64,000 nt of DNA from a virus. Under the pieces are notes generated by a model, which saw only the letters and a program-made list of their open reading frames with translations, was not told the origin of the DNA and did no database searches. The position numbers and the translations under genes are program-made. The stretch is from IMG/VR virus record IMGVR_UViG_3300024259_001888, positions 1 through 64,000 of that record; one strand, 5' to 3'. Of the stretch, positions 9,301 to 15,408 are shown one piece after another (positions within the stretch are counted from its first letter, which is position 1; every line of letters starts with the position of its first letter).

Positions 9301-10497
9301 CTAATGTCGAATAATATAATTCATAATTTCCAGGAAGGATTCTTTGGTAATTCTGGCTCCCATTCTTTTCTGGACAGCATCAGCAATGTCATTGCGAAAA
9401 TTGTCAGAAGCAAGAGGCAACCTAAATTTTGCATTACGCTCCAAAAATTCACAACAGGAAATATATATGGCATCGTCATTAAGGGACGACAGCGAAGATA
9501 AAGCTTCGCTATAATTTTCATGCTTATATGCATAAAAGCTTCTGGCAAGAGTAAGCCCATCATTCAACAGCGTAAACGAATTTTGCTCACCATCAGGAAA
9601 AGTTGTATCACCTTCACGAATCCTTTCTTCCTCAACAAAAAACATGTCAAGCTCAACTACAAGCTGTGAAAATTTATTAAATCCAAGACTAGAATCTTTC
9701 ATGGCAAATGGGTGGGAATTTACATGGTCATATGCATTGAATTGATACTCAGCATTCAATACTCTAGATGTTATTTCATCCTGAGTATCATACAAATGCA
9801 AACTGTTAGACAAGTGAGTCTGAAACCCAACGGGTATGTCTAGCAACATCGCCATCGTTTCCAACAATACAGAAAATTGCACCACATTCGTATTGAACAG
9901 TCCATAATTCACATCATTAGACCGATTAAAAATAGTGAAATGCAGCTTGCCATTCCTAATCAAAAACTGCATAGCAATATTGCATGGTTTATCCGCTGTT
10001 TTCCAAAGAGGATTATCATACGCCGGATTCCAAAAAGTAATGATAGCCTGCCTTGTATCAGGTTCTTTTCTTAAAAGTTCATAGCAATCCGCAAACTGGT
10101 CTCTGGCGTATGTGAATTTATCTGCACTTCTATGCATCCCTGCCTTTCGCAGCCTTATACCATAGGGAGCATGAAATTCTCCTTTACCATCTGAATACTT
10201 TCTCATATTCTTAAGGTAATAAGAAATGAATTCAACATCTCCTCTGCCACCAAGAATCCAAATGGCTTCAAGAATTTGAAAGTAAGGATGAGCATGGCGA
10301 CCAGGGCAGGTAATTATTCGTCGGTACGGCTTCAAGAATGTAATCATAGCAGGTCTTACTTCGAGTGTTTGCAAGCCACGAGGAGAAACATCCTTACCCT
10401 TTTCCAGCAATTGTGAAAGGATATCCACATACATATCGTTAGGGCTATCGCCTTCTGCAATGAGAAAATTAGTTTTCCATTCAGCTTCTTCAATCAT
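9301..10497 (-). CDS. Thymidylate synthase homologue, probable dUMP hydroxymethylase
   Basis: VSPRG, APYG.R, DTRQA, PCN catalytic Cys, RSNDVNYGLFNTNVVQFS, SLHLY; ~400 aa with C-terminal extension as in SPO1-type enzymes. Confidence 0.8.
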   Translation of the reverse strand: MIEEAEWKTNFLIAEGDSPNDMYVDILSQLLEKGKDVSPRGLQTLEVRPAMITFLKPYRRIITCPGRHAHPYFQILEAIWILGGRGDVEFISYYLKNMRKYSDGKGEFHAPYGIRLRKAGMHRSADKFTYARDQFADCYELLRKEPDTRQAIITFWNPAYDNPLWKTADKPCNIAMQFLIRNGKLHFTIFNRSNDVNYGLFNTNVVQFSVLLETMAMLLDIPVGFQTHLSNSLHLYDTQDEITSRVLNAEYQFNAYDHVNSHPFAMKDSSLGFNKFSQLVVELDMFFVEEERIREGDTTFPDGEQNSFTLLNDGLTLARSFYAYKHENYSEALSSLSSLNDDAIYISCCEFLERNAKFRLPLASDNFRNDIADAVQKRMGARITKESFLEIMNYIIRH

Positions 10498-10741
10498 CGA
10501 TCAACCTCCTCACTTTGCTTTGTTCATTAGTCAGAGAAACCCGAATTTCTACCGGATTATTTTCCGTACGAAAACGCACAAATTCAACCGACCGACCCTC
10601 CATTAAGGCCTGAACCTTTGACATCAATGAAGCAAAATCTTGAATTCCAATATTAATCTTAACTACATCTGGCCCAATAAGGCTTTCCATTCTAAAATGC
10701 GGAGCATTATATTCTGTTACAATTCCCTTTTTTTCCATCAT
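10490..10741 (-). CDS. Hypothetical protein
   Basis: ORF overlapping both neighbours, in operon orientation. Confidence 0.6.
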   Translation of the reverse strand: MMEKKGIVTEYNAPHFRMESLIGPDVVKINIGIQDFASLMSKVQALMEGRSVEFVRFRTENNPVEIRVSLTNEQSKVRRLIDD

Positions 10742-10998
10742 CCCTCCTCTTCCTCTGTCGGACCAACGTCTTCAATTCTACATTCAATATCGTTATCAAA
10801 CAAAAATTTCAAGGACATGTATCTTCCAACAAAAAATCCCATCAAGGATAAGATTCCACATGGAATAATAGCCCACCATGAACCTCCGTTTAAAATTTGA
10901 TAAATTGCAAAACAGCCAAGACCACCTGAAAAATATGAAACAACCAATCCTTTATCAACTGATCTATAAATAACATCCTTAATTGCATCTTCGTCCAT
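10738..10998 (-). CDS. Small membrane protein (two hydrophobic segments)
   Basis: RBS GGAGG; two TM-like stretches. Confidence 0.65.
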   Translation of the reverse strand: MDEDAIKDVIYRSVDKGLVVSYFSGGLGCFAIYQILNGGSWWAIIPCGILSLMGFFVGRYMSLKFLFDNDIECRIEDVGPTEEEEG

Positions 10999-11033
10999 AA
11001 ATGCCTCCGCATAATTTATTTAGTGTTTTTATA

Positions 11034-13049: not shown

Positions 13050-14431
13050 TAGACACCCACTATCCCCACTGTCCTAAAAATTGTATCAACTCCTCTCTCA
13101 CTAGAGAACATTTGATAGATAAACTTCTTTTGAAGCATGTTTGCCACCTTCAATGTATGAAGAGAAGCTTTATCGTTATAGAAAGTAATTTTTGATTCTA
13201 ATTCTGCAAGGTCATCAACCAAGTAGTTAGGACCAAGATACTTATCTACCCCATGCAATTCTCTGGGAACAAGCAGTATGCATCCGGCAAGTATAACTTC
13301 AAGCCACCTATGTACGATATGCCCTGAATCATAATACCGTTGCCTTGCCACAGACAAACAAGTTCTTGAAGCATTATATTTTCTCCACACTTCTCCTTGT
13401 GGGATGCCTTCATTCATCACAATCGAACCGGCATGCTTCGCAAATCCTACATACCCTACAGATCGCTTGCTCATACCTCCACCAAACAGATTCAATTTAT
13501 TTTTATCACTTAATGGAGAGAAATATTTCTTGATTGTTTTCCTGCGCTCTGAGTCATTCCCAATATAAGTTGTACGGTATGGCACCTTTTTTTCTACCGA
13601 GTACATACCGATGTCCTTACTGAGCCAATACGGGGGCAAGAAAGGCACAACACTAATCTTAGGATTAAGCTTCCGAACTTTGGTTATTGCTATTCCTGGA
13701 ATTTGCACAAGCCAGTGAGCATTGGCAGCTATCTGTAGGAAATCATCTCTTGAAAATTCGTTATCAGCACCTGAAAATCGAAACACTTTCTTCAAACTAT
13801 CTTTCTCTTTAGCCCTTAGAGTTTTAAACTCATAATCCCATAAGAAAACGGGAATACCTCTACGAGCATACATAAAATTCAACACATAGAAGATCATGTT
13901 TTCAGGAAAGAAAGAAGGAAAAGCATTCATAATAACAAAATCAACATCAGGAAGCTCCATTTCATATGTATCTTCACATTCATTCACACAATGAAGAATC
14001 CAATCAGCTACTGGTTCCCAAGACCTTGGAAGCTTTTTCCACTCCGTACTATGGTCAAACATCTTCGGAGCAAATGCTTCAAAGTTATTAGTAGAACTGA
14101 AAAGATTATGAATTTCACAACCCCTTGCCAAAAATTCTTTCAACAAAGGAATTTCTAAAAGATTACTCGTTACATTACTCACAATTCTAGGATGAGGCAA
14201 ACAAGCTTTAAATGCCCATCCAACCTTGACAGTCTTTCTCATATCATTTGGATCTGGAGTTACCGTTACCTTGGACTGCATGAATCGCCCCAACACTTCT
14301 TCTAAATTAAAGCGATCCAAAAACTGAGCATCCCAAAACTTAGCGTTCTTGCTAAGGAGTTCCCTCGCTTCTCCTTTATCAAATGTAAAGGGCATATCTG
14401 AAATTTCTTTTGGTTTAAATATCTCAGGCAT
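13049..14431 (-). CDS. GT-B glycosyltransferase, T4 beta-glucosyltransferase/CgeB-like C-terminal domain
   Basis: YIGNDSERR..LNLFG..YNASRTCLSV..VHRWLEVILAGCILL nucleotide-sugar-binding pattern. Confidence 0.7.
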   Translation of the reverse strand: MPEIFKPKEISDMPFTFDKGEARELLSKNAKFWDAQFLDRFNLEEVLGRFMQSKVTVTPDPNDMRKTVKVGWAFKACLPHPRIVSNVTSNLLEIPLLKEFLARGCEIHNLFSSTNNFEAFAPKMFDHSTEWKKLPRSWEPVADWILHCVNECEDTYEMELPDVDFVIMNAFPSFFPENMIFYVLNFMYARRGIPVFLWDYEFKTLRAKEKDSLKKVFRFSGADNEFSRDDFLQIAANAHWLVQIPGIAITKVRKLNPKISVVPFLPPYWLSKDIGMYSVEKKVPYRTTYIGNDSERRKTIKKYFSPLSDKNKLNLFGGGMSKRSVGYVGFAKHAGSIVMNEGIPQGEVWRKYNASRTCLSVARQRYYDSGHIVHRWLEVILAGCILLVPRELHGVDKYLGPNYLVDDLAELESKITFYNDKASLHTLKVANMLQKKFIYQMFSSERGVDTIFRTVGIVGV

Positions 14432-14433
14432 GA

Positions 14434-15408
14434 CTATCCTTTCTTTTTCTTCTTTGAAAACTTGGGCGGCTTCGCTCCTTCAAGACAAAATGCGTTTGCA
14501 ACATCAACATCCATGTGGCAGAAAGCCGACATGACAAGATCCTTACTCATGTTCTTTGTTACTTCATCATAGAACTTCCGGTGTTCTTTGGACATATTCT
14601 TAAGGATAGTCTTCTCCGTACCAGACCAGCCATAAACACGGATGACTCCCAGCCCTGCCTCTTTAACCATCGTTCTTAATTCAGGGGGAGAATATTCTCT
14701 GATATGAAACGGGAACTTGCCAACAGTATTCCTGGCATTGGGAGTTGAAATGAAAAACCTACCCTTGGGCCTAAGGATTCTCTTTATTTCCTTCAAAACT
14801 TTCACAGCATACTTCTGTTCAAAATGTTCAATGACTTCTCCAAAAAACACACAGTCCACAGTACCACTCTTAATGAACCCCAGAGGATAAGTCATATCAT
14901 GCTGCACATACATGGCTGGTGTTCTGGCAGAAACAATTGCCTGGAAGCCTTGCATGAGCCTCGTATGGTCCAAATCAACACCGACATAAAGAGGGTTTTT
15001 ATAATAAAAGGAACTGCTCATGATCTTTCGAATCTCACCTACATCACATCCGAGGTCAACAATCCTTGCTCTCCTATTTGGAATAACAGGCACTCTCTGC
15101 GCCCACTCATAATGACGATATAACCAGTCAAACCTCCTGGAAAACCGCATCATTCCACGGCCAAATCCTTCCAGCATAAAATCTGTGCCACAATTTTCAA
15201 TGGAAGAGTCATGCTTGTTAGCCGTAAGATTCTTGCTTAAATGAAGAGAATTCATCTTTACTGCAAAGGGCTTGCGCTTCTTCTTTAAAGCTTCGAAGTC
15301 AACAAAGCAATTGAAAGCTTGTTTAATTGTCTGCAACACAGCTTTCTTGGGAGCTCCCTTCAAAGAAAGCTCAGGAAGTTGATCTTCTGTTATTTTTTTA
15401 CCTGCCAT
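14434..15408 (-). CDS. Class I SAM-dependent methyltransferase
   Basis: IVDLGCDVG, YVGVD, EVIEHF, ILRPKGRFFISTPN. Confidence 0.88.
   Translation of the reverse strand: MAGKKITEDQLPELSLKGAPKKAVLQTIKQAFNCFVDFEALKKKRKPFAVKMNSLHLSKNLTANKHDSSIENCGTDFMLEGFGRGMMRFSRRFDWLYRHYEWAQRVPVIPNRRARIVDLGCDVGEIRKIMSSSFYYKNPLYVGVDLDHTRLMQGFQAIVSARTPAMYVQHDMTYPLGFIKSGTVDCVFFGEVIEHFEQKYAVKVLKEIKRILRPKGRFFISTPNARNTVGKFPFHIREYSPPELRTMVKEAGLGVIRVYGWSGTEKTILKNMSKEHRKFYDEVTKNMSKDLVMSAFCHMDVDVANAFCLEGAKPPKFSKKKKKG

Follow-up and report, generated by a model that had tools for sequence, protein, structure and literature searches.

Several routes to hydroxymethylated and glycosylated bases in DNA have been described. 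In T-even phages (gp42 with alpha- and beta-glucosyltransferases; PDB 1j39, 1qkj, 1y8z), a hydroxymethylase of the thymidylate synthase (TS) family is followed by a DNA-acting GT-B glycosyltransferase (GT), giving glucosyl-hydroxymethylcytosine. Phages SPO1, SP8 and SP-10 have a 5-hydroxymethyluracil (5hmU) pathway, while kinetoplastids carry base J (beta-D-glucosyl-hydroxymethyluracil), for which T is oxidised in DNA (JBP1/2) and a GT-A glucosyltransferase adds the sugar. Finally, a metavirome survey reported GT-B-like enzymes adjoining ThyS (~28%) and replication genes, an arrangement read as pre-replicative hypermodification (Pyle, Lund, O'Toole, Saleh; 10.1101/2023.12.21.572611; Cell Rep 2024). 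Here we analyse a gene cassette which combines a TS homologue with a GT, a methyltransferase (MTase) and two Cys-rich proteins, one of them a member of the DUF2284 family. It lies in the first 64 kb (hereafter the window) of the 84,335-bp IMG/VR virus record IMGVR_UViG_3300024259_001888, whose completeness is estimated at 62% by CheckV.

The cassette shares with the T-even system a TS-family hydroxymethylase and a GT-B enzyme that would act on DNA after it, but its predicted specificity is for uracil (Asn) instead of cytosine (Asp), its GT has no BGT/AGT Pfam match and bears an extra N-terminal segment, and it adds an MTase and two Cys-rich proteins, which T4 lacks. Its hydroxymethylase resembles those of the SPO1/SP8/SP-10 pathway in the catalytic Cys, the uracil-specifying Asn, the C-terminal extension, the size (~380-400 aa), the level of identity (36-43%) and the grouping in a tree, and the accessory logic is similar, with a dCMP deaminase (in relatives) and a 5'-deoxynucleotidase. 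In contrast to these phages, the backbone is that of a seawater phage with a DnaE polymerase, and the GT, MTase and Cys-rich genes adjoin the hydroxymethylase gene. As in base J, the predicted product is an O-glycosylated 5hmU in DNA, but its 5hmU would derive from dUMP at a stage preceding replication, and the sugar would be added by a GT-B enzyme.

A preliminary description of the locus presented it as a new pathway. This overstated its novelty: the general kind is already known, because GT-B/ThyS neighbourhoods in viromes have been published (10.1101/2023.12.21.572611). The experiments of that study, however, dealt with 5-hydroxymethylcytosine (5hmC) from MT + 5mYOX. In the literature searched, this study included, we found no mention of a uracil-type ThyS+GT product or of DUF2284 in this context, and no report of glycosylated 5hmU in native phage DNA.

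Organisation of the cassette

Nearly all genes within the window are on the minus strand, and those of the cassette run follow one another with gaps of at most 35 nt or with short overlaps, as judged from the positions of their open reading frames (ORFs). Starting from a terminator-like hairpin, the order is MTase, GT-B, DUF2284, HNH, Cys/His-rich protein, two small genes, TS homologue, HNH and DnaE. This packed run had been noticed in the preliminary description, and its ORFs lie exactly where they had been placed. The genes on which our interpretation depends are the following:

14434-15408, minus strand: class I SAM-dependent MTase, 324 aa (PF13489, 1.6e-12; also PF08241 and PF13649)
13049-14431, minus strand: GT-B glycosyltransferase, 460 aa (PF13524, 1.3e-6), candidate DNA 5hmU glycosyltransferase
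12417-13049, minus strand: DUF2284 protein, hereafter DUFa, 210 aa (PF10050, 1e-15, 58.3 bits against a cut-off of 25)
11034-11666, minus strand: Cys/His-rich protein, hereafter DUFb, 210 aa (no Pfam, PHROG or NCBIfam match)
9301-10497, minus strand: TS-superfamily enzyme, 398 aa (PF00303, 3.2e-22; phrog_5131, 1.6e-77)
5358-8648, minus strand: DnaE-type replicative polymerase (phrog_405, 1.3e-237), at the downstream end of the co-oriented run

With moderate confidence, we interpret the stretch from 15408 to 9301, leading into dnaE, as a predicted thymidine-replacement and DNA-glycosylation cassette. Two scans of IMG/VR provided related loci: profile-guided searches recovered nine contigs with a DUF2284 gene (39-70% identity), and a second scan with a DnaE profile recovered 79 loci, which were screened with hidden Markov models of the cassette proteins.

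A TS homologue of the dUMP hydroxymethylase type

The TS homologue is very probably a dUMP 5-hydroxymethylase, with 5-hydroxymethyl-dUMP as its predicted product, formed by hydration in place of hydride transfer; the preliminary description had proposed this type of enzyme. When compared with the proteins of 50,697 GenBank phages, it gave 2,552 matches, of which an evenly spaced sample was inspected. Of all matches, the best were the 'dUMP hydroxymethylase' of SP-10 (1e-57; 36% identity across 87% of the query) and gp29 of SPO1 (43%, 3e-57). Enzymes of ViI-like Ackermannviridae and of an M6-like Yuavirus formed a second tier (~1e-26), and true TS, namely the T5-like TS located beside DHFR and T4 td, a third (~1e-8). 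Both the ViI-like and the M6-like groups produce 5hmU-derived bases (PMC8989533). All NCBIfam ThyA equivalog models scored far under their cut-off (74 vs 327 bits), and the best relative of solved structure was the hydroxymethylase MilA (4e-22), followed by ThyA (1e-16).

A maximum-likelihood tree of 18 sequences (IQ-TREE) gave a similar picture. The window enzyme and its nine relatives grouped with SPO1 gp29 and the SP-10, ViI-like and M6-like enzymes (split support 86 UFboot / 95 SH-aLRT), on the other side of the split from three TS and a Bacteroides-phage dCMP hydroxymethylase, and the references nearest to the window enzyme by path were SPO1 gp29 and the SP-10 enzyme. The window enzyme thus falls with the dUMP hydroxymethylases and not with true TS, although we rate the support as moderate because several branches are long. 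An ordinary ThyA, which we also considered, was rejected by the tree and by the family cut-offs.

The active site agrees with this assignment. Catalytic Cys172, Asn204 at the position of ThyA N177 and a C-terminal extension are present as in SPO1 gp29 and the SP-10 enzyme, and the SPO1-type length noted earlier is indeed common to both, extension included. The pair P171-C172 does not vary among the 10 clade members or the reference enzymes. The Asn/Asp pair sets uracil versus cytosine specificity, as known from mutagenesis of E. coli ThyA N177 and T4 gp42 D179. In the motif RSND..G..N.N of the window enzyme there is an Asn and no Asp, as had been pointed out. The four types of dUMP hydroxymethylase (SPO1, SP-10, ViI-like and M6-like) and the three TS all have Asn in the corresponding column (Asn204); MilA, the dCMP hydroxymethylase of the Bacteroides phage and the enzymes of three distant DnaE phages (L100, L102 and L106) discussed below have Asp there.

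The glycosyltransferase and its variable slot

On balance, we favour the cassette GT as a candidate DNA 5hmU glycosyltransferase. In its predicted structure, it resembles T4 beta-glucosyltransferase (BGT) in fold, with the two domains of the GT-B type: the core (residues 68-457) superposes on the entire T4 enzyme, preceded by an extra ~67 aa at the N-terminus, and structural comparison ranked T4 BGT first, with a match over its full length and 12% identity in the alignment. A profile search of PDB sequences with the GT returned no glycosyltransferase.

Comparison of related loci shows that the slot between MTase and DUFa is variable. An orthologue of the cassette GT occupies it in L002, L005, L007 and L009. 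In L004, L006 and L003, the same slot contains a TET-associated glycosyltransferase (TAGT, PF20691; 1.5e-18 in L004) followed by a radical SAM/SPASM enzyme; the pair is found at L004:7842-9699, L006:8163-9966 and L073:1-1800 (L073 being the same contig as L003). Association with DNA-base-modifying enzymes is what defines the TAGT family, which was related to the base-J glucosyltransferase by Pyle et al. (10.1101/2023.12.21.572611), whose clusters, with TAGT/JGT-like GT-A enzymes among them, resemble our loci in this respect. As these relatives carry a DNA-base glycosyltransferase family in the slot, the slot itself is likely to act on DNA, and this is the best argument available for such an activity. 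A TET/JBP gene would be unnecessary in the three relatives, because a dUMP hydroxymethylase is present. No TAGT (PF20691) was detected in the 64-kb window itself.

Gain and loss of the cassette

All nine relatives (9/9) share the order primase ... DUFa - DUFb ... TS - DnaE, even where DnaE identity falls to 35%, and each of the 10 clade loci contains the TS homologue, DUFa and DUFb. The linkage, whose conservation had been named earlier as a point to check, thus holds for these three genes, but co-occurrence is less complete for the MTase, with orthologues in 6-7 of the 10 related loci, and for the GT, with orthologues in the four relatives listed above.

Three loci, corresponding to two distinct phages (L069, L070 and L071), carry none of MTase, GT, DUFa, DUFb and TS. 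They nevertheless retain the DnaC-DnaB-small gene-GT9-primase...DnaE backbone at 35-36% DnaE identity, and their primase-DnaE interval is occupied by a class II ribonucleotide reductase in place of the cassette. As the five genes are jointly missing, they behave as one gain-or-loss unit, and the GT9 gene beside the primase, which is kept in the same loci, lies outside that unit. The reductase gene is located at L069:4300-10000 and L071:5400-10000, with an intein and an HNH gene in the L069 copy, and L005 carries both the cassette and a class II ribonucleotide reductase.

More distant DnaE phages carry an Asp-type TS-family gene directly upstream of DnaE (L100, 9021-9995; L102, 7568-9459; L106, 7947-9990), preceded in L102 and L106 by a GT weakly similar to the cassette GT. 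Judged by its sequence, the L102/L106 cassette looks like a 5hmC counterpart without DUF2284. Since neither DUFa nor DUFb occurs in these three phages, glycosylation of hydroxymethyl-pyrimidines does not appear to require DUF2284 in general.

The DUF2284 protein and its Cys/His-rich partner

DUF2284 proteins occur in methanogens and anaerobic bacteria. DUFa scores above the family cut-off and keeps all seven family Cys (C38, C41, C50, C150, C153, C157 and C165), which are common to 17 archaeal members, as well as R35, E174 and other family-conserved residues. Three of the Cys form one group and four another; both groups are shared by the archaeal and phage proteins, and the predicted fold is nitroreductase-like. 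DUFa probably binds an Fe-S cluster or another metal.

The preliminary description had counted a second DUF2284 protein at 11034-11666, a claim that had to be dropped. In addition to lacking any family match, DUFb could not be related to DUFa by BLASTP (E 1.8) or by profile-profile comparison (hhalign probability 0.2%), so that the cassette contains a single DUF2284 member. By its sequence, DUFb represents a distinct Cys/His-rich family with no detectable relation to DUF2284. It carries a CPWC...H..H zinc-finger-like motif and a C-x2-C...C cluster, with C33, C73, C76, C139, C142 and C154 invariant in the alignment, and it always adjoins DUFa (10/10 loci). Nitroreductase-fold enzymes are typically dimers, and a DUFa-DUFb complex is thus conceivable by analogy.

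Searches for relatives of the pair gave little. No match was obtained by tblastn of DUFa against GenBank phages, the PDB profile search with DUFa was empty or spurious, ESM Atlas searches with DUFa and DUFb returned no usable match, and a search for longer, fused forms of DUFa found none. A scan of the genome collection with the DUFa profile yielded only three distant cellular loci. In the literature, we found no reported function for DUF2284. The sole lead there is the catalogued selenoprotein NF041536, in which arsenite methyltransferase (ArsM) is fused to DUF2284 (PMC13188914). The phage cassette is similar in that it associates a class I MTase with DUF2284, but its MTase matches that family at E 0.005 only.

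Within the uracil branch, the two proteins probably serve in a redox or accessory step. That they belong to the modification chemistry itself is possible, if somewhat short of likely. Still more tentatively, DUFa and DUFb may form a metal or Fe-S redox enzyme acting on 5hmU nucleotides or 5hmU-DNA, which together with the GT and MTase would give an undescribed viral thymine replacement, a tailored base-J-like glycoside, in an abundant lineage of marine phages; we regard this as rather doubtful. If true, such a redox role would be the first function for DUF2284.

Methyltransferase and nucleotide-pool genes

The MTase has an N-terminal extension of ~95 aa and a Lys-rich C-terminal tail (..KFSKKKKKG), which would suit nucleic-acid binding. 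Against NCBIfam, it matched small-molecule MTases only, all below threshold.

One further gene of the window may bear on nucleotide pools:

2140-2754, minus strand: HD-domain YfbR-like 5'-deoxynucleotidase (PF12917, 2e-23), conserved in G000, G001 and G002

By analogy with the dTMPase activity of SPO1, this enzyme is a candidate for depleting dTMP. The preliminary description had suggested looking for a dCMP deaminase and a dNMP kinase elsewhere. A dCMP deaminase was found in two relatives (G001 and G003), but no dNMP kinase was recovered from five related, incomplete records.

A 5hmU DNA kinase was searched for with a single query, SP-10 gp186, by tblastn in this genome and by a search of five related records (62-89% complete), and none was found; the aGPT-Pplase families were not part of this search. 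The SP-10 neighbours of the hydroxymethylase, gp186 included, have no relatives here. The locus thus differs from SP-10 in that its type of 5hmU DNA kinase was not found in the window phage record or in four incomplete relatives. The earlier statement that no such kinase is visible holds to this extent, but since all five records are incomplete, the absences of kinase and pool genes are weak evidence.

Proposed pathway and alternative explanations

In the pathway that we propose, the TS-family enzyme would convert dUMP and methylene-tetrahydrofolate into 5-hydroxymethyl-dUMP, as do SPO1 gp29 and the SP-10 enzyme, a step made fairly firm by homology. Cellular or phage kinases would then yield 5hm-dUTP, to be incorporated by the phage DnaE instead of dTTP, with the HD 5'-deoxynucleotidase and the dCMP deaminase of relatives biasing the nucleotide pools. 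After replication, the BGT-like GT-B enzyme would move a sugar from a nucleotide-sugar to the 5-hydroxymethyl group in duplex DNA, as suggested by its fold and by the replacements in its slot; the product would be a base-J-like O-glycosyl-5hmU, and a 5hmU kinase/pyrophosphorylase route would be unnecessary. More speculatively, the lysine-tailed class I MTase would tailor the sugar or the base. The Cys-rich pair, inherited with the hydroxymethylase as one unit in the clade, would supply a redox or accessory step in the uracil branch.

Several observations weigh against this pathway. In structural comparison, the margin of T4 BGT over ordinary GT4 enzymes is less than 2 Z units. A Pfam scan (E<=0.01) placed the GT in PF13524 only and not in the T4 BGT family (CAZy GT63, Pfam T4-Gluco-transf); the term BGT-like, used in the preliminary description, stands for the predicted structure, which superposes on T4 BGT, but not for the sequence. 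The slot of L001, the closest relative (DnaE 64% identical), holds an unrelated 472-aa ORF (8568-9986) without family match, which is a non-orthologous replacement of the GT. That of L008 has no recognisable GT and holds, directly upstream of DUFa, a PfkB-family kinase (7579-8622; PF00294, 1.2e-37), a carbohydrate or hydroxymethylpyrimidine-type kinase which could phosphorylate the sugar or the hydroxymethyl group. The neighbourhoods of 20 archaeal DUF2284 genes are heterogeneous and suggest no nucleotide role: radical SAM genes (4/79), Hydantoinase_B (3) and YcaO (3) were seen, with no link to TS-family genes. The five related records, all incomplete, yielded no dNMP kinase, dUTPase or thymidylate kinase. 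The conserved linkage comes from a single clade and may therefore count as one evolutionary event. Finally, the phage is known from seawater metagenome contigs only, and the pathway is predicted from sequence.

In addition, the genome holds ~10 other glycosyltransferases and sugar-tailoring enzymes, which earlier readings related to Ser-rich virion proteins, and a non-DNA acceptor for the cassette GT is therefore possible. This leads to an alternative with an SPO1-like end point, in which plain 5hmU replaces T, the GT and MTase serve glycans of virion proteins or of the cell envelope, and the Cys-rich pair is a replication or pool accessory. Enzymes suited to such glycans abound elsewhere in the genome (GT2 x3, GT9 x2, GT1/GT4 x2, a TagF-like enzyme, a DegT aminotransferase and several sugar-type methyltransferases), Ser-rich virion proteins were noted by the first readers, and both the generic PF13524 match and the proximity of ordinary GT4 enzymes would fit. 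However, backbone relatives devoid of the cassette have lost this GT along with the hydroxymethylase but have kept the GT9 by the primase; a DNA-base glycosyltransferase family, TAGT, occupies the same slot in relatives, and the top structural match over its full length is T4 BGT. We thus consider this end point unlikely. A kinase-dependent hypermodification of the SP-10, ViI, M6 or phiW-14 type would instead place a 5-HMUDK in the missing third of the genome, followed by addition of an amino acid or polyamine, the GT being unrelated. The estimated completeness of only 62% leaves room for such a gene, and dUMP hydroxymethylase is the shared entry enzyme of kinase-dependent pathways (PMC8989533). 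But known kinases and transferases are usually near the hydroxymethylase (PMC8989533), a neighbourhood taken here by glycosyltransferases, and a search with the SP-10 5-HMUDK (gp186) was negative for this record and for four relatives, the most complete of which reaches 89%. We regard this route as very improbable.

An equally improbable alternative is that the DNA is canonical and that the cassette provides another route to thymidylate: 5hm-dUMP, as an allylic alcohol, would be reductively dehydroxylated by the Fe-S-type DUF2284 pair, in an IspH-like manner, to give dTMP without consuming dihydrofolate. The nitroreductase-like redox fold of DUFa and its two Cys groups, conserved from archaea to phage, could suit such chemistry, DUFa strictly accompanies the Asn-type enzyme and is missing from cassettes of the Asp type, and no DHFR was seen among the ORFs scanned. 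This route is nevertheless deduced purely from fold and Cys pattern and leaves the DNA-type glycosyltransferases (BGT-like and TAGT) of the cassette unexplained. Moreover, the nearest characterised relatives of the TS homologue come from phages with 5hmU or its derivatives in DNA, and a phage in need of dTMP could simply carry ThyA or ThyX.

Cassette edges, inserted genes and genomic surroundings

The remaining features of the cassette and its upstream edge are the following:

15426-15462, minus strand: terminator-like hairpin, 17 pairs and a T tail, between the poly-Glu gene and the MTase start
11653-12420, minus strand: HNH_3 homing endonuclease with HTH domains (Pfam/PHROG), inserted between the DUFa and DUFb genes
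10738-10998, minus strand: small protein, 86 aa, with hydrophobic segments, conserved only in the closest relative, L001
10490-10741, minus strand: small protein, 83 aa, conserved only in L001
8645-9298, minus strand: HNH_3 homing endonuclease (Pfam/PHROG), inserted between the hydroxymethylase and DnaE genes

The hairpin (15462-15426) is the upstream edge of the cassette. In a promoter scan, sigma-70-like matches were no better than chance. The gene directly upstream (15494-16588), separated from the cassette by this strong terminator, encodes a poly-Glu protein; only in L001 and L002 does its conserved core lie beside the cassette or within it.

The HNH gene at 8645-9298 is missing from L001 and L002, and that at 11653-12420 is missing at that position from these two closest relatives and from most others. 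Because of their absence from L001 and L002, both are selfish homing-endonuclease insertions, in agreement with their earlier treatment as extras within the run. In metagenome contigs from other runs, ends often coincide with these two genes. The genome contains at least eight HNH-type homing endonuclease genes, six in the window (2702-3391, 8645-9298, 11653-12420, 25541-26194, 33473-34030 and 35937-36566) and two in the rest of the genome (71588-72172 and 77328-78005).

A replication module flanks the cassette, with primase, GT9, DnaB, DnaC, helicase, HU and the HD 5'-deoxynucleotidase. The GT9 heptosyltransferase-like gene and the small gene preceding it (17633-19154) sit between DnaB and primase. 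As both are retained in relatives without the hydroxymethylase cassette, their target should be independent of 5hmU.

An unusually large set of glycan genes is found at 23493-35875 of the window and 72263-82239 of the genome. It includes three GT2 (27812, 29364 and 34038), a GT1 (24478), a second GT9 (34781), a TagF-like glycerophosphotransferase (32419), a 938-aa protein with a C-terminal GT1 domain, an RMNT_CmcI methyltransferase, two Methyltransf_24 and a class I methyltransferase (23493). A DegT/DnrJ/EryC1 sugar aminotransferase gene (genome 75086-77317; L011:10751-12982) is split by an intein with a LAGLIDADG endonuclease.

Distribution

A megablast search of GenBank phages with the cassette gave no match, and DnaE is at most 28% identical to that of any GenBank phage. 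Near-identical copies of the locus were recovered from seawater metagenomes of many studies (at least 11 runs), and the phage is therefore widespread; contigs from four seawater runs carry the locus at ~100% identity. Assembled contigs of this kind are blind to base modification. Three contig 'joints' at the locus were disregarded, as their sides comprised only 20-22 letters. Metagenome homologues also occur on contigs of 132-140 kb. Short contigs of a 2025 seawater metatranscriptome match 9209-9949 (hydroxymethylase) and 13408-13606 (GT) with 0-5 mismatches, but DNA carry-over is possible and they are no proof of transcription.

Implications

The phages concerned are uncultured, and all of the above is deduced from their sequences and from predicted structures. 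If the proposed pathway is true, a widespread marine phage group carries glycosylated 5-hydroxymethyluracil, a type of base known in nature mainly from kinetoplastid base J. To our knowledge, all characterised phage thymidine hypermodifications use a 5hmU kinase. The cassette would bypass it by a T4-like route, in which a hydroxymethylase acting on nucleotides is followed by a DNA glycosyltransferase. For DUF2284, a family otherwise found in methanogens and gut anaerobes, strict co-inheritance with a uracil-type hydroxymethylase offers a testable context. Finally, the variable GT slot, filled by a BGT-like GT-B enzyme, a TAGT with a radical SAM enzyme, a 472-aa protein or a PfkB kinase according to the phage, would provide a natural panel of DNA-modifying enzymes.

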